Shown one piece after another: positions 354 to 21,606 of a stretch of DNA of 64,000 nt; position 1 is the first letter of the stretch, and each line of letters opens with the position of its first letter. The translations under genes and the position numbers were made by a program. The notes under the pieces are model-generated. The model had not been told where the DNA came from. It made no database searches and saw nothing but the letters and a program-made list of their open reading frames with translations. Source of the DNA: Actinomycetes bacterium (GTDB lineage Bacteria > Actinomycetota > Thermoleophilia > UBA2241); NCBI GenBank assembly GCA_029547745.1, contig JAKPOQ010000061.1, positions 18,399 to 82,398 on the forward strand. Direction: 5' to 3'.

Positions 354-1712
354 TCAGGCGGCGCCGTGCACTCGCCGCCGCTCGACGCTGTTGATCGGCA
401 ACTCCAGCAGGCGCGAGATGGCCGCCTTGGCCTCGGCGGGGCTCGGGTCGAACGGACGGGGAGCCTCCCCGTCCGCGATCCGCCCGAGCCCCAGGTCGCC
501 GCGGACCTCCTGCATCGCGGCGCAGTCGGAGAGATCGCCCTCAGCGACGCCGAGCCTGTCGGCGACGTAGGCCTTGGCTTCCGCGAGCCGCATACCTCTG
601 GCCATCTGCAGGCGCGCTACCAGATCTCCGGAAGCGCGCATGCCACCCATCCCTGCGGCGACACCGTGTGCCACGGGCATGCCGAAGATGTCTCCCGTCC
701 CGACCTACAGGCCGTCCAGACGCAGGACCTCGACGGTCGCCTTCGACACCCTCGAGACCGCATCGACGGGCGGCACCATGGCCATCGGCACGCCACCGAC
801 CCCCATCCCCACGTTCATGTGGACGGGGATGCGTGCGCCGGCCACGCACGGCTTCACGAGCGTCAGGGCGCGACTCGTGTTCCAGGCGAGACTGCGGCCG
901 GTGTTGACGTTGACCGCCGGCCCATAGATGGTCGCGCCGGCCTGTTGGACGAGCTCCTGCTGTCCCGCCGGCCACCGGCCGGCGACGCGCATGCCGTGGA
1001 ACTCGAGCTCGCCGTGAGTCCCGAGCACGCGCTCCGCCGCCATGCCGACCATGATCCCCATGTCTGGGTGGCGGGAGCGCAGTGTCTCGACTGCGCGCAA
1101 CGTCGCCAGCAGGTCGGCGTCGCCGGCGGCGCCGGCGGTGTCGAAGTTGACGCCGTCGGCGCCCGCCTCCCAGAGCGCCTCGGCGACGTGCACCATGTCC
1201 GCCGTCGCCAGCTCCATGGCCTCTTCCTGAGCCGTGCGCGCCTCGTCGATGCGCAGCTCGGGCAGGAGCGTCGACCAGTTGCGGCACGGCCCGTCGGGCT
1301 CAGAGTACCGTCCGAGATCGGGCTGCGCCCCGTAGTGCACCGGGATCGTCAGGCGCTCCTGGGCCTCCTTCATGGCCGCTTGCTCGTGCGGGACGAGCGT
1401 CTTCACGGCTTTGTACGAGTAGTCCTGGTGAAAGAGCTCCAGACTGTCCGAGGCCAGACACTGCTCGTAGAGCAGCAGGCCTGCGATACGGTCGAACTGC
1501 GCCGCCCCCGTGCCGTCGAAGCTCAGCATGACCTCGTCGCCGATGTCGACCGCGGTGAAGCGCGCCGGCGAGGCGAAGATGGCAAGGAGATGGTCGAGCT
1601 CATCCGCGGCGAGCGGATCGACCTTGGCCCGGCGGACGGCCTCGTCGACCCCGCCTTCGAGTTCCGTCCTGATCTCGGATCGCGTCAGCTCGATGAGGGA
1701 GCCGTCGGCCAT
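354..1712 (-). CDS. mtbB: Dimethylamine:corrinoid methyltransferase homolog (MtbB / Dimeth_PyL family) with an in-frame TAG at 705-707, presumed pyrrolysine read-through
   Basis: ORFs 705..1796 and 354..680 are in the same frame and separated only by TAG (rc of cta at 705-707) plus 8 codons (VGTGDIFG). The combined protein is ~452 aa. It carries motifs recalled from methanogen MtbB: GADGVNFDTAGAAGD, NVGMGVGGVP, AGMGG..SGDLVARLQMA, INSV. The paralog at 5035..6422 has TAG at the identical position. RBS GAGGA sits 9 nt before ATG 1710-1712. A start at the upstream GTG (VEPRIPTRM..) is also possible. Confidence 0.7.
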
Positions 1713-1921
1713 GCGCGTCGGGATCCTCGGTTCCACGTGCCCCCTTTCGGCCTGAGGGCCGGGCGAAGGGACCGCCGGCCCACCCTGCGTCCGCAAGCAT
1801 CGTAGTCACTGCGCCGCGGCGGGAGCAACGGCGGATTCTTGGACGAACGTCACACCGGGGGCGCACGAAGTTGGCGCGCCGCCGGTCGCGCCCTACTAGC
1901 TGGCGCGCCGCCGGCCGCGCC

Positions 1922-2731
1922 CTACTCGAGGAGCAGTCGGTCGACCGCGAAGGCCTCACCGGCGACCTTGTGGAACATGTCGATGAGGTCGCTCACCTGC
2001 AGGGCCTCCTTCTCGGTCGGGCCGAGATCCAGCACCACGCGGCCCTCGTGCATCATGATCAGCCGCTCGCCGTAGCGCAGCGCCAGCTCCATGTTGTGGG
2101 TCACCATGAGCGTCGTGAGGCCCCGCTCCGAGACCATCTTCGCGGTGAGGTCCATGATGGTCGCCGCGACCTTGGGATCGAGCGCCGCCGTATGCTCGTC
2201 CAGAAGGAGGATGCTCGGCTCGGACTCCGTCGCCATGAGCAACGACATCGCCTGCCGTTGACCCCCGGAGAGCTTGTTGACCTGGGCCTTGAGACGATGC
2301 TCGAGGCCCATGCCGAGAGGCTCCAGATGCGTACGCATGAACTCGCGGCGCCGGTTTGTGACGCCGAGACGCAAGCCGCTGCGACGTTCGCGCATGAACG
2401 AGATCGCCAGGTTCTCTTCGATCGTCATGCTGGGAGCGGTCCCCGCCGTAGGGTCCTGGAAGACGCGACCGATCAGACGACTGCGCTGGAACTCGCGTTG
2501 CCGAGTGACGTCTACACCGTCCAGCAGGACACAGCCCGAGCTCACCGGGTACATGCCCGCGATCGTGTTGAGGAGCGTCGACTTGCCGGACCCGTTCGAC
2601 CCGATGATGCTGACGAACTGGCCCACAGGAACTTCGAGGTCGATGCCGTTCAGGGCCACGACCTCGTTGGCGGTGCCCGGGAAAAAGACCTTGCGCACCG
2701 CCTGCAGTTCCAGACTGGCGGGCCGGCTCAT
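1922..2731 (-). CDS. ABC transporter ATP-binding protein (COG1101-type; partner of the COG4120 permease and COG2984 binding protein)
   Basis: Walker A GSNGSGKST, signature LSGGQRQ, Walker B LLLDEHTAALD. The true start MSRPASLELQAV is at 2731 and overlaps the permease stop by 4 nt. The gene ends with TAG (1922-1924). Confidence 0.8.
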   Translation of the reverse strand: MSRPASLELQAVRKVFFPGTANEVVALNGIDLEVPVGQFVSIIGSNGSGKSTLLNTIAGMYPVSSGCVLLDGVDVTRQREFQRSRLIGRVFQDPTAGTAPSMTIEENLAISFMRERRSGLRLGVTNRRREFMRTHLEPLGMGLEHRLKAQVNKLSGGQRQAMSLLMATESEPSILLLDEHTAALDPKVAATIMDLTAKMVSERGLTTLMVTHNMELALRYGERLIMMHEGRVVLDLGPTEKEALQVSDLIDMFHKVAGEAFAVDRLLLE

Positions 2732-3636
2732 ATACGCACCACCTTCTTGCGGACCGTCGGGATCGACAGCGCGATCACGACGAGGACGGCGGTGAGGAGC
2801 TTGAGGTCCGTGGGCGCGATGCCTAGCCGCAGGCTCACGGCGATGAGCAGCCGATACACGATCGAGCCGCCGATCACGCTGAACAGCACCCAACTCACGC
2901 TGCGCTCACCGAAGAGCACCTCGCCCATGATGACGCCGGCCAGGCCGGCGACGATGGTGCCGATTCCCATGCCGACGTCGGCGAACCCCTGCTGCTGAGC
3001 TACCAGGGCGCCGGTGAGGGCGACGAGGGCGTTGGCGATGCCGAGGCCGACGATGCGGGTGAAGGCCGTGTTGGTGCCCATGGCGCGGATCATCTGCTCG
3101 TTGTCGCCCGTGGCCCGTAGACAGAGTCCGAACTCCGTGCGCAGAAACCAGTCGATGACGTACTTCACGATCACGGCGAGCGCAACAAGGGCGATGATGA
3201 GGTTCCACCCGCTCATCGCGACGCCGAACAGATCCTCGATCTGCTCGAACACGCCGTCCAGGCCGAGGAGCGGCGTATTGCTCTTGCCCATCACCCGCAG
3301 GTTAACGGTGTACAGGCCGGTCATGGTGAGGATGCCGGCCAGAAGCTTGGCGCCGTAGTTGGCGGCGGCGCTGCCGCTCGACCCCAAGCCGAGCAGCAAG
3401 TGCAGGATGCCGGTGACGAAGCCGGCGCAGAGCCCCGCCGCCACACCGGCCAGGGTCGCCGTCCACGGAGACTGCCCGCCGGAGATCATCGCCGCCGTCA
3501 CCGCAGCCCCCAACGGGAGACTGCCGTCCACAGTCAGGTCGGGGAAGTCCAGCACGCGGAAGGTGATGTACACGCCCAGCACCATGAAGCAGTACAGGAG
3601 GCCCTGCTCCAATCCGCTCGTGATGATCGCTTCCAC
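2728..3636 (-). CDS. ABC transporter permease (COG4120-like, multi-pass membrane)
   Basis: 302 aa hydrophobic protein with ~8 predicted TM segments, translationally coupled to the downstream ATPase. Confidence 0.8.
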   Translation of the reverse strand: MEAIITSGLEQGLLYCFMVLGVYITFRVLDFPDLTVDGSLPLGAAVTAAMISGGQSPWTATLAGVAAGLCAGFVTGILHLLLGLGSSGSAAANYGAKLLAGILTMTGLYTVNLRVMGKSNTPLLGLDGVFEQIEDLFGVAMSGWNLIIALVALAVIVKYVIDWFLRTEFGLCLRATGDNEQMIRAMGTNTAFTRIVGLGIANALVALTGALVAQQQGFADVGMGIGTIVAGLAGVIMGEVLFGERSVSWVLFSVIGGSIVYRLLIAVSLRLGIAPTDLKLLTAVLVVIALSIPTVRKKVVRI

Positions 3637-3737: not shown

Positions 3738-4754
3738 TCACTCTCCGAAAATATTGTCCGCCTTCGCGAGGACGTCCTCGGGCAGGGTGACGCCCATGGC
3801 CTTCGCCGAAGCGGGGTTGACGGACAGTTGCAGGGACTCAGCGAACTGCACCGGGATCTCGGCGATCGGCGTGCCGCTGAGGATCTCCGCCGCGATGTAC
3901 CCCGCCTGCACGCCCAGGTCCTTATAGTCGAACGCGTACGCCGCTGCAGAACCGCGCTTCACGCTGTCGGTGTCTCCCGAGATGAGCGGGATGTCGTTCT
4001 GCTGGCACACCTTGACGACGCTCTCGAGCGCGGACACCACGGTGTTGTCGGTGAGCACGGAGATCGCATCGACGCGGCCGACCAGGGAGTCGGCAGCCGC
4101 CTTGACCTCGGAGGAGTTGCTTGCCGTGGCCTCGACGACCTTCAGCCCCATGGCCGCCGCGGCCTTCTTCTCCTGCTCGACGGAGAACACCGAGTTAGCC
4201 TCGCCCGCGTTGTACAGCACACCGATCGTCTTGACGTCCGGCACGATCTGTTTGATGAGATCCAGGTGCGGCTTGACCGGCAGCATGTCGCTCACGCCCG
4301 TGACGTTGGCGCCCGGCGCCTCGGGGTCGTCGACGAGACCGGCGCCGACCGGGTCCGTGACGGCGGTGAACACGATCGGGGTCGTAGTGACGGCCTTGGC
4401 GACCGCCTGCGACGTGGGCGTCGCCACGCCCAGGATGAGGTCGAGATCCTCGCTGGCGAAAGCCTGGGCGATGCTCGAGGCCGTCGCCATGTCGCCCTCA
4501 GCGTTCTTGACTTCGTAGGTGACGTTGGTGAAGCCCTTCTCGGCCAGACCCTGCTTGAAACCCTCCACGGACGCATCGAGGGCGGGATGCGTGACGATCT
4601 GGGTGATGCCGATGGTATAGGCCTGAGCCTGTGGACTCGCGGAAGCGTCGCCGCCGTCGCCCTCGTCCGAGCCACTGCAGGCGACGAGGGAGAGAGACAG
4701 GGCCAGGACGGCGGCCAGCGCAGACAACGCGGCCAGGGTACGTGCACGACGCAT
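3738..4754 (-). CDS. ABC transporter substrate-binding lipoprotein (COG2984 / ABC_sub_bind family)
   Basis: Signal peptide with lipobox (LSLSLVAC) starting at MRRARTLAAL, followed by a periplasmic binding-protein-like fold. It is followed by a 15-bp-arm stem-loop. Confidence 0.75.
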   Translation of the reverse strand: MRRARTLAALSALAAVLALSLSLVACSGSDEGDGGDASASPQAQAYTIGITQIVTHPALDASVEGFKQGLAEKGFTNVTYEVKNAEGDMATASSIAQAFASEDLDLILGVATPTSQAVAKAVTTTPIVFTAVTDPVGAGLVDDPEAPGANVTGVSDMLPVKPHLDLIKQIVPDVKTIGVLYNAGEANSVFSVEQEKKAAAAMGLKVVEATASNSSEVKAAADSLVGRVDAISVLTDNTVVSALESVVKVCQQNDIPLISGDTDSVKRGSAAAYAFDYKDLGVQAGYIAAEILSGTPIAEIPVQFAESLQLSVNPASAKAMGVTLPEDVLAKADNIFGE

Positions 4755-4928
4755 CGTTCTCCTTTCGCTGAGAGGGTGTGTCATTCTACGTACGCGCCCC
4801 GGAGCACACAAGCCGCCTCCTCATCATTATGCACGTCATCCGCGTAGACCGGCCCACGAGTGAGGCACGGAGCAGGCCTCGCGGACGAGTTGATGCCGGT
4901 CTGTCGCATCCTCGGTCATCCGCGCGCA

Positions 4929-4968
4929 GGTCGGGCGGGGCGCCGCCACCGCGGCGCCCCGCCCGACC
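4929..4968. other. Perfect 18-bp-arm stem-loop between mtbB2 and the ABC binding-protein gene
   Basis: GGTCGGGCGGGGCGCCGC-cacc-GCGGCGCCCCGCCCGACC, located ~65 nt downstream of the TAG that ends mtbB2. Confidence 0.45.
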
Positions 4969-5034
4969 GTTCCGTCTTCTCGCATCCGGGCTCGTCGGGG
5001 GCGGACCTCCCGCCCGCCGCCGGCCCGTGCATGA

Positions 5035-6422
5035 CTATCGTTGCAGACCGACGCGGTCCTTGAAGCGCGCGACCGAGTTGATCGGCACGTCGAGCAGCTC
5101 ACTGATGTTGAACTTCGCCTCGATCATGCCGGGCTCGGCAGGATGGACTGCCGAGGTGCAGGCCAGCGTGCCGAGGCCGTGGTCGACCCGGATGGTCTCC
5201 ATGGCCACCGGGTCGGACAGATCGCGCACGGAGCAGCCGAGCTTGTCGGCCACGTAACGCTTCGCTTCACCGAGACGCATCCTGCGGGCCATCTGCATCC
5301 GGGCGACCAGGTCTCCGGCCGTCCGGTAACCGCCCATGCCCGCGGCGTGTGCGTGCGCGCCCTCCATGCCCTGGGCGTCGCCGGTACCCGCCTAGTAGCC
5401 GTCGATGCGCAGGATCTCGACGAACGCCTTCGCCGCCCGCGAGGTGGCGTCGGCCGGCGGGTAGGCGCAGGTCGGCACCCCGCCGACGCCCATGCCCACA
5501 TTAACGTGGATGGGGATCTCGGCGATCTCCATGCAGGGCTTGATGATGGTGATCGCGCGGGCGATGTTCCAAGCGGTCGACTTGCCCGTGTTGATGTTGA
5601 CGCAGGGCCCGAAGATGCTCGCTCCGGCCTGCTGCACGAGCTCCAACTGGGCCTTCGGCCAGAGGCCAGCGAGGCGCGTGCCGCGATGCGTGACCTGGCC
5701 GTGCATGCCGATCACGAACTCGCCCGCCATGCCGATCTCGATGCCGAGGTCGGGGTACTTGGCACGCAGCCGCTCGCAGGCCTCGAGGGCGGCGAGGAAG
5801 TCGCAGTCGCCGGCCGCCCCGGTCGTGTCCATGTCGATGCCGTCGGCGCCGGCCGCGACGAGGTGGTCGGCGACGAACTCGATGTCGTCGACGAGCACCG
5901 CCGCGGCCTCTTCCTGCGAGCGGCGCGCCTCGTCGATCTTCCCCAGGGGGAGCAGCTCGGACCAGTTGGGGAACGGCCCGTCGGGGGCCGAGTAACGTCC
6001 CAGGTCGGGCATCGCCCCGTACTGCACCGGGTTCGTGACGAGCAGTTGGGCCATCTTCATCCACTGGGCTTCGTGGTGGACGTTCGTCTTGACGGCCTTG
6101 TAGGAGTAGTCGGTCTGCCAGAGTTCGACGATGTCGACGCCGACCACCTGCTCGTAGGTCTGCAGGTCGGCGCCGACGCTGCCCACATACTTGGTGCCGG
6201 TGCCGTCGTTGCTGAGCACGACCTCGTCGCCGATGTCGACGGCGGCGAAGCGCGCCGGCGAGGCGTAGATGTCGAGCAGATGGTCGAGCTCGTCTTGGGT
6301 GAGCTCCGCGACCTTCGCCTTCTTGGCCGCGATCTGCGTGCCCTCTTCGAGATCGGCCTTGATCTCGGAGCGCGTCATCTCGACGAGCGCGCCGTCACCC
6401 ATTCGCGTCGGGATCTTGGGTT
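5035..6422 (-). CDS. mtbB: Second dimethylamine methyltransferase homolog (MtbB family) with an in-frame TAG at 5392-5394, presumed pyrrolysine read-through; it also terminates with TAG
   Basis: ORFs 5392..6630 and 5035..5367 are in the same frame (6630-5367=1263) and separated by TAG (rc of cta at 5392-5394) plus 8 codons (AGTGDAQG). It is a paralog of 354..1712; the post-TAG octapeptide has conserved amino acids but differs at synonymous sites. RBS GGAGGTG lies before ATG 6420-6422 (MLLEPKIPTRMGDG..). The N-terminal extension in the ORF track (MSFAS..) is unlikely to be real. Confidence 0.7.
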
Positions 6423-6642
6423 CCAACAGCATCACCTCCAGCACGTCGTCGGGACCGGAGTCAGGACGGTAGCCTACCGTACCCGTCGTCACCGGCGCCA
6501 CCGGGTCTGCGGCAGCCCCAGCAGACGATACTGCGGCACCCTGGCGAGGCCCGCGCCTCGGGCTCTCTTGATGGTCCGCACAGTGCCAGCCAGCCGCACC
6601 CTGGCCGCGCCTCGTCGAGGCGAAGGACAAGGCACAGCCTGC

Positions 6643-6718
6643 TGGAGCCGGCGGGCGGGCTCGAACCGCCGACCTGCCGCTTACAAGGCGGCTGCTCTGC
6701 CAACTGAGCTACGCCGGC
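6643..6718 (-). tRNA. tRNA-Thr (anticodon UGU)
   Basis: The reverse complement folds as a canonical cloverleaf: acceptor GCCGGCG/CGCCGGC, D-arm GCTC-AGTTGGCA-GAGC, anticodon stem GCCGC/GCGGC with loop CTTGTAA, T-arm GGCGG-TTCGAGC-CCGCC, discriminator T, CCA encoded. Confidence 0.88.
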
Positions 6719-14323: not shown

Positions 14324-16711
<2,388 letters not shown>

Positions 16712-16776
16712 ATGGTCACTGCCTTCCGTTTCTCGTCCCTGGACTGCTCCTCGTCATCGCGATCCTGGGCGCCGAT

Positions 16777-17193
16777 TCATCTCCGCCGCCGGCGACGCCC
16801 AGACACGGGCACCATCGCCGCTGAGGGCAGCGGCACGAGGTCGAACCTGTGCTCACGCTCAGCCTCGGCCACCGCCCTACGCGTCTCCTGCCCCGCCTGC
16901 GCGAGCCTCGCCTGCAGAAGGTCCACCTCATGCGCCATGGCCTCGAGGCGATCCTCCATCTCGAGGACGCGCGCGATCCCCGCAAGGTTGAGCCCCATGC
17001 CGGTCAGCTCATGGATGCGCCGCAAGCGGTCGACGTCCCGTCGCGAGTATCGCCGCGTGTTCTTCGCCGAGCGCTGCGGGCGCACCAGACCCCTGCGCTC
17101 GTAGAGGCGCAGGGTCTGCGGATGCATCCCGGCCAGCTCAGCCGCCACCGAGATCATGAACAGCGGAGCGTCGATGTCGTCCTCGAACCTCAT
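16777..17193 (-). CDS. hspR: MerR-family heat-shock repressor HspR
   Basis: N-terminal HTH LFMISVAAELAGMHPQTLRLYERRGLVRPQRSAKNTRRYSRRDVDRLRRI. Position is downstream of dnaJ. Confidence 0.85.
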   Translation of the reverse strand: MRFEDDIDAPLFMISVAAELAGMHPQTLRLYERRGLVRPQRSAKNTRRYSRRDVDRLRRIHELTGMGLNLAGIARVLEMEDRLEAMAHEVDLLQARLAQAGQETRRAVAEAEREHRFDLVPLPSAAMVPVSGRRRRRR

Positions 17194-17230
17194 CCGTCGT
17201 CCTCGAACCTTATCCGTCGTCTTCGTCGAC
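17176..17230. repeat. ~2.7-copy tandem 20-nt repeat (GTCGTCCTCGAACCT[C/T]ATCC) that duplicates the hspR translation-start region
   Basis: Copies at 17176-17195 and 17196-17215 plus a partial third. The hspR ATG (rc CAT at 17191-17193) lies in copy 1, so the 5'UTR repeats the first 6 codons (MRFEDD). Confidence 0.7.
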
Positions 17231-17260
17231 TCCTGTGCAGTATGCCGCGCTCAGGACGCG

Positions 17261-18406
17261 TCACACGCGGGCGAAGGCTGCCGCCCTGGGGTCACCCAGC
17301 GTCTCGCCCAGTTTCTGGAGCAGTTCCTTCTGCTCCCTCGTCAGCTTGTCGGGCACCACGACACGCAGGCGCACCAACAGGTCACCGCGCCCGCCCTTGA
17401 GCTTCGGCGCGCCCTTCCCGCGCACGCGGAGGGTGCGGCCGTCCTGACTGCCGGGTGGGACCTTGAGCGACACGCTGCCGCCCCCCGGCGTCGGGACCCT
17501 GACCTTGGTCCCGAGCGCCGCCTCGCTGATGGTGATCGGCACCTCCAGGACGAGGTCGTCGCCGCGGCGCTGGAAGAAATGGTCCGGCTCCACACGTACG
17601 ACCACATAGAGATCCCCGGCCGGTCCACCGCGCGACCCTGCCTCGCCCCTGCCTTTGATGCGGATGCGTGTGCCGTCCTTGACGCCGGCCGGGATCTTCA
17701 CCGCGTATCGACGCGTGCGCGTGCGGACACCGCGACCGCCGCACCGGGGGCACGGGTCTTCGATGATCGTCCCGTTCCCAAGACACCGCGGACACGGCTG
17801 TGACAAGGCAAAGACACCCTGGTTCTGGGCGACAACGCCGCGGCCCTGGCACTCGGGACAGATCTTCGGCGTCGTGCCGGCCTTTGCGCCCGTCCCGTGA
17901 CAGTCCTCGCACGCATCGGCCTTCGTCACCGGGACCCGCACAGTCGCGCCGCGCAGGGAGTCCTCGAACGAGACTGTGACCTCGGCCTGCAGATCGGCGC
18001 CGCGCTCGGCGGCCGGGCGCCCGCGGGCGCCCGGCCGCCGAGCGCCGGCGGCGCCACCGAACAGACCAGACAGCAGGTCGCCGAGGTCGCCCATGTCGAA
18101 CGTCGCCCCGCCCTGCTGGAACATGCGCGGGTCGAAGCCCTGGAACCCGCCCTGGCCGGGACGGAAGCCCCCGCCGGCTCCGGGGCCGAAGGCTCCGAGT
18201 CGGCTCAACTCGTCGTATTGCTTCCGCTTCTCCGGGTCGGACAGCGTCTCATAGGCCTGGTTGATCTCCTTGAACTTCTCTTCGGCCGCCTTGTCGCCCG
18301 GGTTCTTGTCGGGGTGGTACCGACGCGCAAGCTTGCGGAAAGCCTTCTTGATCTCGTCCTGAGAGGCCGACTTGGGAACGCCCAGTATCTGGTAGAAGTC
18401 AGCCAT
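17261..18406 (-). CDS. dnaJ: Chaperone DnaJ
   Basis: J-domain with HPD (YHPDKNP), G/F-rich region, four CxxCxGxG zinc-finger repeats and a C-terminal domain. Confidence 0.92.
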
Positions 18407-18409
18407 CGC

Positions 18410-19126
18410 TCACCTCGCGACGACCACCTTTGCAGGGCGCAGCAGGCGACCGTGGAGAAGGTATCCGGGTTCCAGCACCTGGAGCACGACACCCTCGTCA
18501 TGGTCATCGGACGACTGTGTCATCACGGCCTCGTGCACGGTGGGGTCGAACGGGTCGCCGACTGCAGTGGGGACCCGGGCGAGGCCGTATGCTGCGAGCA
18601 CGTCGTTCAACTGGCCGGCGACGAGCTGCAAGCCGCCGACGAGCTGGCCCTCCTCATGATGCGCTGCCGCCTCGAGGGCGCGCGCCATGTTGTCCATGAC
18701 CGGCAGCAGCGACTCGACCACATCCTCAGCGGCGCGCAGACGCAGCTCCTCGCTCTCGCGCCGGACACGTTTACGGTAGTTGTCGAACTCCGCCTGCAGG
18801 CGGCGCAGATTGTCCAGGTACTCGTCGCGCTGAGCGGTGAGACCGGCGACCACGTCGTCGGCGATCGGCTGCACCGCCTCACCGGCGACGGCTTCGACGC
18901 CTTGCTCGTCGCCGCCCGAGGCCACCCGATGAGCGCGCTGACGCGGCTCGCCCCGCTCGCGCTTGTGGCGCTCGCGTTTGTCCTGCTCGTGCTTCTTCTG
19001 CTCGTGCGTGTGCTCGTCGTGTTCGTGCTTCTCGTCGCTCATATCGTGGCGTCTCTCTCGATGCGGTTCGGTCGCGGTACGGACGGGGCGGCGCGGGTCC
19101 GGCGTGCCGGGCCCGCGCCGCCCCAC
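18410..19126 (-). CDS. grpE: Nucleotide exchange factor GrpE
   Basis: GrpE coiled-coil plus C-terminal beta domain (..DPFDPTVHEAV..). Lies between dnaK and dnaJ. Confidence 0.9.
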   Translation of the reverse strand: MGRRGPGTPDPRRPVRTATEPHRERRHDMSDEKHEHDEHTHEQKKHEQDKRERHKRERGEPRQRAHRVASGGDEQGVEAVAGEAVQPIADDVVAGLTAQRDEYLDNLRRLQAEFDNYRKRVRRESEELRLRAAEDVVESLLPVMDNMARALEAAAHHEEGQLVGGLQLVAGQLNDVLAAYGLARVPTAVGDPFDPTVHEAVMTQSSDDHDEGVVLQVLEPGYLLHGRLLRPAKVVVAR

Positions 19127-19135
19127 ACTGCCGCC

Positions 19136-19614
19136 TTACTTCTCGGCCTTCTTGGCCTCCACAGGTTCGGCCTTCTTGGCCTCGACGGCCTTCTTGGCCT
19201 TGACCTCGATGCGCTTCGGCTTCTCCTCTTCGGCCTTGGGCACGGTGACCGTGAGGATGCCATCCTCGTAGGCGGCCGAGATCTCATCGGCCTTCACGCC
19301 CTGCGGAAGAGCCAGGGCGCGCTGGAACGACCCATAGCGCCGCTCGACGCGGTAGTACCGCTCGTCGTCCACCTTCTCCTCGAAGCGACGCTCGCCCTTG
19401 ATCGTGAGGACGTTGTCCTCGACCTCGATCTGGATGTCGTTCGGGTCCATGCCGGCGAGCTCGGCCTTGACGACGACGGCGTCCTTCTGATCGAAGACGT
19501 CCACCGCCGGCAGCCAACTCTCTTGGCGCCCGCCCCAGACCTGATCGAAGAGCCGGCTGACCTGGTCCTGGACCTGGGTCATCTCACGGAACGGATCCCA
19601 TCTGATGATCGCCA
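19136..19614 (-). CDS. Hsp20 / alpha-crystallin family small heat-shock protein
   Basis: MAIIRWDPFREM.., ACD core (VDVFDQKDAVVVKAELAGM..GILTV). The start is set at MAIIRW with RBS AAAGGAGGTG. The ORF-track extension is non-coding. Confidence 0.85.
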
Positions 19615-19707
19615 TGGTCGACACCTCCTTTGGTCTTCGTTTTCGTCTCGCTTCTCGTACCGGCCCGCCCGACAGTTGGTCGAACTGGCCGCAATGACAC
19701 CTTCTTG

Positions 19708-21606
19708 TCACTTGGTCTCGTCGTCGTCGATCACCTCATAGTCCCCCTCCTCGACGTTCTCGTCGCCGGAAGTCGCCCCAGAGCCGTCGCCGCCCGCCGC
19801 CTGCTGCTGCTGGGCCTGCTGGTACACCGCCTCAGCGAGCTTGTGCGAGGCTTGCATCAAGGCTTCAGTCTTGGCTCTGATGTCGTCGACGTCATCGCCG
19901 TCCAGCGCCTTCTTCAGCTCGGCCGCCGCAGCCTCGATCTCCTGCCTGGTCGCGGCGTCCACCTTGTCGCCCATCTCGCGCAGCGACTTCTCGGTGGAGT
20001 ACACAAGGTTCTCGGCGTTGTTCTTGACGTCGGCCACCTCGCGCGCCCTGCGGTCTTCCTCCGCGTGCGCCTCGGCCTCCTTGACCATCCGCTCGATGTC
20101 CTGCTCACTGAGGCCGCTCGACGCGGTGATCGTGATCTTCTGCTCGTTGCCCGTGCCGAGATCCTTGGCGCTCACGTGCACGATGCCGTTGGCGTCGATG
20201 TCGAACGTCACTTCGATCTGGGGGACGCCGCGCGGCGCCGGCGGGATACCGACGAGCTGGAACTTGCCCAGCGTCTTGTTGTAACGCGCCATCTCGCGCT
20301 CGCCCTGGAGGACGTGGATCTCGACACTCGTCTGGTTGTCTTCGGCGGTCGAGAAGATCTCGCTCTTCCTGGTCGGGATCGTCGTGTTGCGCTCGATGAG
20401 TTTCGTGAACACGCCGCCCTTGGTCTCGATACCGAGACTCAGCGGCGTGACGTCGAGCAGCAGGACGTCCTTGACCTCGCCGGCGAGCACGCCGCCCTGG
20501 ATCGCGGCGCCGACGGCCACGACCTCGTCCGGGTTCACGCCCTTGTGCGGCTCCTTGCCGACGAGCTGCTTGACCCTCTCCTGGACGGCAGGGACGCGCG
20601 TCATGCCGCCGACAAGGATGATGTGGTCGATCTGGTCGGCACGCAGGTTCGCGTCCTTCAACGCCTGCTCGACCGGCCCGACGATACGTTCGAGCAGGTC
20701 GTGCGTGAGCTCGTCGAACTTCGCCCGCGTGAGCGTGAGGTCGAGGTGCTTGGGGCCGTTCTCGTCGGCCGTGATGAACGGCAGATTGATGTTCGTGCTG
20801 GTGGTCGTCGAGAGCTCGATCTTCGCCTTCTCGGCGGCCTCGTACAGACGCTGCAGGGCCATCTTGTCCTTGCTCAGGTCGATGCCCTGACTCTTCTTGA
20901 ACTCAGCCACCATCCAGTCCACGACGGCCTTGTCGAAGTTGTCTCCGCCGAGGTGCGTGTCTCCGTTGGTCGCCTTTACCTCGAACACGCCCTCACCGAT
21001 GTCGAGGATCGAGACGTCGAACGTGCCGCCACCGAGGTCGAAGACGAGGATGGTCTGGTCGTGCTCCTTGTCGAGGCCGTACGCCAGCGCCGCCGCCGTG
21101 GGCTCGTTGATGATGCGCTTGACGTCCAACCCGGCGATCTTGCCGGCGTCTTTGGTGGCCTGGCGCTGCGAGTCGTTGAAGTACGCCGGGACGGTTATCA
21201 CGGCTTCGGACACCTTCTCGCCGAGATAGTCTTCGGCGTCGCGCTTCAACTTCTGCAGGATCATCGCCGAGATCTCCGGCGGCGTGTAGGTCTTCCCGCC
21301 GATCTCGACGACGGCATCCCCGTTCGGCGCCTTGGTCACCTTGTACGGCACGATCTTCATCTCTTCCGAGACGTCGCCGTACTTGCGCCCCATGAAGCGC
21401 TTGATGGAGAAGACCGTGTTCTCGGGGTTCGTGACCGCCTGGCGACGGGCAACGCTGCCCACGAGCCGCTCGCCCGTCTTTGAGAAGGCAACGACCGACG
21501 GAGTCGTGCGGCCGCCCTCGGAGTTCGGGATGACGGTCGGCTCGCCACCTTCAAGGACAGCCATACAACTGTTGGTCGTCCCCAGGTCGATGCCGATGAC
21601 CTTGCC
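19708..21606 (-). CDS. dnaK: Chaperone DnaK (Hsp70)
   Basis: [18 protein letters not shown].., [11 protein letters not shown]-terminal EEVD-like tail. The true start is ATG at 21604-21606; the 939-aa ORF-track extension is upstream non-coding sequence. Confidence 0.95.

Follow-up and report, generated by a model that had tools for sequence, protein, structure and literature searches.

Two mtbB genes with a conserved in-frame UAG codon in an uncultured Thermoleophilia bacterium: evidence for probable pyrrolysine encoding

Background

When a methyltransferase gene is interrupted by a TAG codon, does this codon end the protein, or is it translated? The question is raised by the sequence analyzed here, a stretch of 64,000 nucleotides (the window) from an uncultured bacterium of the class Thermoleophilia (assembly GCA_029547745.1, contig JAKPOQ010000061.1, positions 18,399 to 82,398), with a G+C content of 69%. 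The window contains two paralogous genes, hereafter copy A and copy B, for the dimethylamine:corrinoid methyltransferase MtbB, each with a single internal TAG. Pyrrolysine (Pyl)-containing MtbB is the textbook case of UAG decoding in Methanosarcina, and systems in which the Pyl-tRNA synthetase is split into two proteins, PylSc and PylSn, are known in Firmicutes and Deltaproteobacteria. We analyzed the two genes together with their relatives in other genome assemblies and estimate, with a probability of roughly 0.9, that both are functional, Pyl-encoding mtbB genes.

Results and discussion

Anatomy and family membership of the two mtbB copies

Gene callers annotate each copy as two open reading frames (ORFs), and the same is true of all metagenome copies examined. 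An earlier reading of this DNA, made from its letters without database searches (the sequence-only reading), had joined the two ORFs of copy B, and its description is accurate: ORFs 5392..6630 and 5035..5367 lie on the minus strand in one shared frame and are separated by a TAG (5392-5394) and eight codons, AGTGDAQG, after which comes a Met. This TAG is the only break in the frame. Also as described, the paralog carries a TAG at the homologous codon (705-707), followed in copy A by VGTGDIFG-M, and the residues ahead of the TAG are RIDGY in copy B and RLDGL in copy A. The differences quoted between the codons of the two octapeptides (ggg/ggt, acg/acc, gga/ggc) are real, and copy B does end in a further TAG. 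Over their whole length the two copies share 59% amino-acid identity.

One boundary had to be moved. The sequence-only reading placed copy B at 5035-6422; its end at 5035 stands, while the start is likely to be the TTG at 6426, with an ATG at 6432 as the alternative. A GGAGG Shine-Dalgarno motif is located 8 nucleotides (nt) upstream of the TTG, and translation from this codon gives an N-terminal part of 344 residues, as is typical among homologs; the gene would therefore extend over 5035-6426. The predicted tryptic peptide of copy B that spans the UAG is IDGY-O-AGTGDAQGMEGAHAHAAGMGGYR, where O is a pyrrolysine residue of about 237.15 Da.

Once the TAG is read through, copy B matches the Pfam family PF09505 with 541.6 bits (cutoff 25) over profile positions 4-462 of 463, and the NCBIfam family TIGR02368 with 415 bits (cutoff 369.1). 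The corresponding scores for copy A are 520.9 and 410.6 bits. The TIGR02368 matches run across the TAG, from position 7 to position 465 of 466, and full-length matches above the curated cutoffs of both databases are obtained for either copy only with read-through. Judged by these profiles, copies A and B are members of the dimethylamine methyltransferase family from end to end, and their single in-frame UAG shares its alignment column with the TAG of 110 aligned relatives. Structure adds little. A sequence search of the PDB returned no MtbB match, and an AlphaFold2 model (pLDDT 78, pTM 0.83) matched generic TIM barrels only; the TM-scores are low (0.2-0.3), and so is the confidence of the model around the Pyl site.

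Conservation and selection across the TAG

To follow the TAG in relatives, we used 77 loci with 125 mtbB copies in total; the genome assemblies that they come from almost all bear the label Thermoleophilia. These 77 primary loci were retrieved via N-terminal peptide motifs, independently of the TAG region, and thus were not selected for it. An in-frame TAG followed by the motif xGxGD is found at the same aligned column in all 77 loci, and the internal codon is TAG in 125 copies out of 125. At their terminal stops, these genes show another distribution: 95 TGA, 19 TAG and 10 TAA. For 124 copies the retrieved DNA extends to the downstream stop, and in 117 of them 102-134 codons follow the internal TAG before the frame closes. 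Protein databases show the same codon from the other side: of the best 120 homologs, nearly all are truncated to about 344 residues (74% of the query), because gene callers ended them at this position.

One protein departs from this pattern. P0119 (468 residues, Logan source), the sole full-length homolog among the top matches, has Gln at the Pyl position; this probably reflects a gene call under a genetic code in which TAG means Gln, and not a true sense codon.

The sequence-only reading saw purifying selection in the octapeptides that follow the two TAGs. This comparison is thin, with 4.5 synonymous against 5.5 non-synonymous differences, and the ratio of non-synonymous to synonymous substitution rates (dN/dS) between copies A and B across the TAG, the check it proposed, is weakly informative at 59% identity. 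We therefore turned to the whole clade, where 110 mtbB genes of Thermoleophilia yielded 52 independent pairs. There the claim is borne out: the codons ahead of the TAG have a dN/dS of 0.26 and those past it 0.31, with values of 0.19 over the first eight codons (+1 to +8) and 0.22 over the first 26 (+1 to +26). In copy B orthologs at 90% and 80% identity, the segment past the TAG has dN/dS values of 0.26 and 0.20, respectively. Several residues in this segment (His+13, Ala+16, Gly+21 and Arg+23) are invariant, yet they are encoded by several synonymous codons; for Gly+21 we counted 11 GGC, 36 GGT, 38 GGG and 25 GGA.

Two further observations concern the downstream Met and variation within populations. 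The Met at +9 is present in 96 of 110 copies and replaced by Gln or Val in the remaining 14, so that re-initiation at this codon cannot be the general mechanism by which the C-terminal part is made. Six metagenome versions of the locus differ from the window by strain-level single-nucleotide polymorphisms (SNPs), of which 14 are synonymous, one is non-synonymous and one is a nonsense change. Homolog lengths, codon identity, selection, the downstream Met and population variation thus provide five independent lines of evidence, and their agreement supports translation of the segment past the TAG, in frame and within one MtbB protein. To this extent the sequence data uphold the earlier proposal that copy B is neither a pseudogene nor a pair of separate genes.

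Pyrrolysine machinery in related genomes

If UAG encodes pyrrolysine in this lineage, its genomes should contain the genes for making and charging it. Actinobacterial PylSc proteins were not reached by the simplest route: the best 120 matches of a protein search with the Desulfitobacterium hafniense PylSc (a query corrected against PDB entry 3dsq) come from Firmicutes only. An exhaustive search of cluster representatives with the same query returned 194 PylSc-like clusters, among which we chose sequences with the amino-acid composition of high-GC genomes. One such candidate, P0242, has 2878 relatives; two of these, one from a Thermoleophilia and one from an Actinobacteria bacterium, carry the NCBI name "pyrrolysine--tRNA(Pyl) ligase large subunit". 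Clade PylSc proteins are 43-51% identical to that of D. hafniense.

Three metagenome-assembled genomes (MAGs) have both a PylSc gene and TAG-containing mtbB genes: JBAZPK01 (PylSc on contig 196; mtbB locus L027), JAAZAR01 (contig 71, JAAZAR010000071.1; locus L059) and JADGPQ01 (contig 21; loci L014 and L077). The pyl locus of JAAZAR01 (L098) is complete: PylSc, PylSn, PylB, PylC and PylD all score above their NCBIfam cutoffs, and ARAGORN finds a tRNA-Pyl(cta) directly downstream of pylD. Beside pylSc lies a gene for an MtbC-like corrinoid protein (TIGR02370, 225 bits; cutoff 215). The tRNA-Pyl is nearly invariant in the five loci L090, L091, L098, L099 and L101, which represent three sampled populations. 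The clade pylT, 73 nt long (GGGGGGTCGATCGRAAGGATCAGCGTGGGCTCTAAACCCACGYAGGCGGGTGTGACTCCCGCACTCCCCGCCA), is present on 104 metagenome contigs.

The layout of the Thermoleophilia pyl locus is conserved (L098 9001-16961; L090, L099). The order is pylSc, the MtbC-like corrinoid gene, a gene for a 292-residue radical SAM protein and a separate pylSn, with pylB-pylC-pylD-pylT on the strand opposite to pylSc-pylSn. At its start, pylSc overlaps with the stop codon of an amidase gene. The pyl locus is never found less than 10 kb from mtbB.

A tblastn search with the M. mazei PylRS and the D. hafniense PylSc, covering the window and all mtbB loci (1.5 Mb), identified no PylS. Weak matches in L017, L019 and L051 were rejected as PylS: they are antisense to a TAG-containing mttB gene.

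Proposed mechanism and alternative explanations

We propose that the single internal UAG of each copy would be read by tRNA-Pyl(CUA) charged by a split PylSc/PylSn synthetase, with pyrrolysine made by PylB, PylC and PylD, all encoded elsewhere in the genome. Decoding would yield full-length proteins of 463 (copy B) and 460 (copy A) residues. By analogy with characterized MtbB, the Pyl side chain would bind and activate dimethylamine, and the methyl group would be passed to a cognate corrinoid protein; the host being a bacterium, tetrahydrofolate would be the next acceptor. An ABC transporter encoded between the two copies may import the substrate, as suggested by its position and conserved linkage.

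A number of observations weigh against Pyl encoding in this organism. The window contains no pyl gene, no tRNA-Pyl and no tRNA with a CUA anticodon, and neither pyl genes nor a tRNA-Pyl turned up in the 10 kb past its left edge or in the 10-kb surroundings of the 77 related mtbB loci. All six PylSc proteins that we collected (P0408, P0413, P0507, P0588, P0403 and P0477) come from species or samples other than those of the window organism, none of the 104 pylT contigs comes from its JGI sample (Ga0116252), and no PylSc from bioreactor contigs matched a listed protein. Since the pyl genes were found only in relatives, their presence in the window organism is something that we infer from the clade. 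A cognate corrinoid protein (MtbC) is likewise absent from the 64-kb window. In addition, the nonsense SNP mentioned above is a TAC to TAA change at codon 226 of copy B (L006 1260-1262; ENA ERZ778037). It is seen only in this assembly, of 5.5x coverage, and represents either an assembly error or a strain with an inactivated copy B.

The usage of TAG as an ordinary stop also belongs here. Among 46 window genes supported by their G+C content at third codon positions (GC3), 37 end in TGA, 8 in TAG and 1 in TAA, and the internal UAG would have to be told apart from these terminating UAGs. In the TAG-ended genes, 12-125 codons separate the TAG from the next stop in frame, and no back-up stop is close by; read-through of the terminal TAG of copy B would add an extension of 82 codons. 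UAG is thus neither avoided nor backed up in what we take to be a Pyl-decoding organism, which implies that Pyl decoding would be context-dependent or conditional, as it is in other bacteria that use pyrrolysine.

The absence of pyl genes in or adjoining the window, the TAA in one strain variant of copy B and the missing link between the organism and a pyl locus could all be accommodated if the organism had lost pyl or never had it, the mtbB copies being non-functional remnants or genes of which the N-terminal fragment alone is used. Remnants would not be expected to look like these genes: both copies have an intact frame on either side of the TAG, the SNPs are overwhelmingly synonymous (14, against one non-synonymous and one nonsense), copy B orthologs remain under purifying selection past the TAG, and relatives in the clade possess a complete pyl set. 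Of the alternatives, this is the one that we would weigh most heavily, and it is still very unlikely. A different possibility is a split gene: translation would truly end at the UAG, re-initiation at the downstream Met would yield a C-terminal part of about 110 residues, and the two polypeptides would assemble into an enzyme free of pyrrolysine. The ATG eight codons past the TAG in both window copies, its counterpart in most relatives and the annotation of two separate ORFs would all fit such an arrangement. However, the eight codons between TAG and Met are under purifying selection and contain the xGxGD of every locus, no Shine-Dalgarno motif precedes the downstream ATG, and 14 of 110 copies are devoid of Met+9. 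Moreover, since TGA is the stop that prevails in these genomes, an ordinary stop would be expected to drift towards it, whereas the site is TAG in every copy. We regard a split gene as highly improbable.

A last explanation accepts that the codon is translated and disputes the residue: another suppressor tRNA, or near-cognate decoding, would insert a canonical amino acid at the UAG. The identity of the residue is indeed deduced and not directly observed, and the window has no tRNA with a CUA anticodon. On the other hand, the only tRNA with this anticodon found in the clade is a typical tRNA-Pyl adjoining pylBCD, and the site aligns with the UAG at position 1 of the mtbB PYLIS model of Rfam, which was built on this family. 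Were a canonical residue enough, some copies would be expected to have acquired a sense codon; none of the 125 has. This makes insertion of a canonical residue the least probable explanation of all, and decoding of the UAG as pyrrolysine the one that we retain.

RNA elements around the TAG

Both copies match the Rfam family PYLIS_2 (RF02509) above its gathering score, and both TAGs align to its position 1 (Table 1). Much of this score derives from conserved coding sequence. Over 96 distinct sequences, the pairing of helix 1 of the model is kept in only 60% of cells, and most of this helix is broken in each of the two window copies. Helix 2, which forms in 92% of cells, is a hairpin of 7 bp located 72-92 nt past the UAG (minus strand, approximately 5303-5322 in copy B and 616-635 in copy A). 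Covariation is seen at one of its base pairs, which links the third positions of two codons: this pair is formed in 88.5% of sequences versus 44% in shuffles, and 0 of 5000 shuffles reached the observed value. The hairpin contains an invariant GGAGAY (96 of 96 sequences), and GGA is the codon for Gly+26 in 109 copies out of 110, even though GC3 is about 0.9. Covariation in helix 2, GGAGAY and this codon bias point to a constraint acting on the RNA.

Leader sequences provided less. No significant fold was found in the leader upstream of copy A, and in the alignment of copy B leaders conservation is confined to the Shine-Dalgarno and start region. Downstream of copy B, the sequence-only reading had noted a stem-loop at 4929-4968, which turns out to be a perfect GC-rich hairpin. 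For the 141-nt stretch around it (4900-5040), the folding energy is -92.6 kcal/mol and the z-score relative to shuffles is -5.8. This element is probably a terminator or an attenuator, of a type found in high-GC bacteria, ahead of the ABC transporter genes. It was missed by a consensus terminator scan because it has no run of T; the consensus scan for promoters and terminators was uninformative for this GC-rich DNA.

Relation to known pyrrolysine systems

The two genes resemble the MtbB1-3 genes of Methanosarcina barkeri in several respects: they belong to the same family over their full length, they have one in-frame UAG at the homologous position followed by xGxGD, and their post-UAG sequence matches the Rfam mtbB PYLIS model. 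They differ by their host, a high-GC actinobacterium instead of a methanogen, and by the presumed fate of the methyl group, which would go to tetrahydrofolate and not to coenzyme M. They also differ by their linkage: M. barkeri mtbB is linked to mtbC and an mtbP-type permease gene, whereas the window genes are linked to an ABC transporter. The only full-length relative seen outside Thermoleophilia is about 50% identical.

With Desulfitobacterium hafniense, Acetohalobium arabaticum and Bilophila wadsworthia, the clade shares a separate PylSn together with PylB, PylC, PylD and tRNA-Pyl. TAG is a common stop in these three species as well. Unlike theirs, the Thermoleophilia pyl genes are not adjacent to methyltransferase genes. 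A likeness of another kind exists with the non-Pyl members of the MttB superfamily, such as the glycine betaine methyltransferase MtgB, which are also corrinoid-dependent methyltransferases of non-methanogenic bacteria. MtbB, however, is a sequence family distinct from MttB, and these non-Pyl members have a sense codon at the Pyl position in contrast to the TAG of every copy considered here.

Pyl encoding in Actinobacteria is not new. Actinobacteriota MAGs from Stordalen Mire, including the genus Bog-752, are described as expressing Pyl-encoding mttB and mtbB (Ellenbogen et al. 2023, PMC10805028), and PylRS genes have been reported in two actinobacterial genomes (Guo et al. 2022, PMC9630628). 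These cases concern the same phylum and gene family as ours. In the parts of the two papers that deal with such genes, truncated (amber-containing) genes and their expression are noted; how far the TAG is conserved, the selection acting across it and the pyl locus are not analyzed in those parts. The NCBI pipeline, for its part, already names a Thermoleophilia PylS. We are therefore dealing with a known phenomenon in a little-described lineage. The window species differs from the Stordalen Mire MAGs and is present in several other metagenomes. In the literature that we searched, we did not find the scale of the clade (hundreds of species), the existence of at least nine paralog classes or the separation of pyl from mtbB.

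Current knowledge is not overturned by these mtbB genes, which nevertheless have some practical consequences. Each copy should be annotated as one Pyl-containing protein and not as two ORFs. In ecological terms, the genes add evidence for dimethylamine demethylation by uncultured Thermoleophilia, which would compete with methylotrophic methanogens or feed them. The relatives occur in peat and lake samples and, judging by sample and isolate names, in bioreactors and anaerobic digesters too. Finally, about 100 diverged copies of a single UAG context, from organisms where UAG is also a common stop, constitute a data set for the question of how UAG-Pyl is distinguished from UAG-stop. We may speculate further, in a scenario that we consider doubtful as a whole, that Thermoleophilia are a large and scarcely described reservoir of Pyl decoders, that their mtbB classes serve different methylated amines and are coupled to a TrpX-like importer, and that the GGAGAY hairpin helps the ribosome to tell the Pyl UAG from the UAG that, with no back-up stop, ends about 17% of genes.

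Genomic neighborhood and distribution of relatives

Table 1. Position of the mtbB genes and associated features in the window
Feature	Position	Strand	Remarks
mtbB copy A (paralog)	354..1736	-	460 codons; GTG start at 1736; stop TGA; in-frame TAG 705-707
PYLIS_2 (RF02509), copy A	608..707	-	63.4 bits (gathering score 36); begins at TAG
ABC transporter ATPase	1922..2731	-	profile match
ABC transporter permease (BPD_transp_2)	2728..3636	-	profile match
ABC transporter substrate-binding protein (PF04392, TrpX-like)	3738..4811	-	profile matches
GC-rich perfect 18-bp hairpin	4929..4968	-	no U-tract; 67 nt past the copy B stop
mtbB copy B (dimethylamine:corrinoid methyltransferase)	5035..6426	-	463 codons, likely TTG start; stop TAG 5035-5037
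PYLIS_2 (RF02509), copy B	5295..5394	-	46.8 bits (gathering score 36); begins at TAG
In-frame TAG of copy B	5392..5394	-	codon 345 from the TTG; proposed pyrrolysine codon; TAG in homologs
tRNA-Thr(UGU)	6643..6718	-	directly upstream of copy B; conserved synteny marker, not a suppressor tRNA

Three genes for a TrpX-like ABC transporter sit between copies A and B on the same strand. The match of the substrate-binding protein to NF041285 (284 bits) is under the cutoff of 390. Linkage of the transporter to mtbB is kept in relatives (L019, L088 and L089), and on these grounds of position the transporter is a possible importer of methylamines. Elsewhere the window is ordinary actinobacterial chromosome, with ligA, surE, dnaK-grpE-dnaJ-hspR-clpB, topA and fhaA-fhaB-pstP-rodA-pbpA-pknB. 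Exact matches of window proteins are found in an NCBI MAG (GCA_035419265.1), in JGI sample 3300010342 and in several ENA metagenomes; ERZ761562, ERZ773284 and ERZ27257436 are ENA assemblies that contain the organism.

When one genome per GTDB species was scanned, at least 578 relatives of the MtbB protein were found. Among the best 80 of these, nearly every one derives from a MAG whose label is Thermoleophilia or the broader Actinomycetota or Actinomycetes. Synteny is kept among relatives in the order clpB ... surE, HAD, ligA, tRNA-Thr, mtbB ... mtbB, ABC transporter. At 72% identity, the TAG-containing mtbB genes of loci L011-L087 form at least nine paralog classes with several members, and up to four copies occur within 21 kb; substrate specificity may therefore differ between copies. 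The commonest class, syntenic with ligA and tRNA-Thr, includes copy B, and copy A is one of the three members of a rare class. The Stordalen Mire MAGs bog_752 (L021) and palsa_647 are among the related loci (L021, L031 and L036).

Two loci bear unexpected labels. The MAG CAWHEJ01 (L034), labelled as a delta proteobacterium, has a Thermoleophilia-type mtbB that is 78% identical to copy B and has the tRNA-Thr marker, and CAVZVP01 (L072), labelled Alphaproteobacteria, has one that is 60% identical to copy B. Mis-binning or mislabelling is the likely cause in both cases.

Other methyltransferase genes accompany mtbB in L019. Adjoining another mtbB, positions 16048-20880 of the minus strand contain an mttB with an in-frame TAG, a corrinoid protein gene and a long MttB-like ORF devoid of TAG; these genes were assigned by reading their translations, not by a family search. 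In the window itself, a 24-nt direct repeat, TAGGGCGCGRCCGGCGGCGCGCCA, occurs twice on the minus strand upstream of mtbB copy A, at 1872-1895 and 1901-1924, and its first copy begins at the stop codon of the ABC transporter ATPase.

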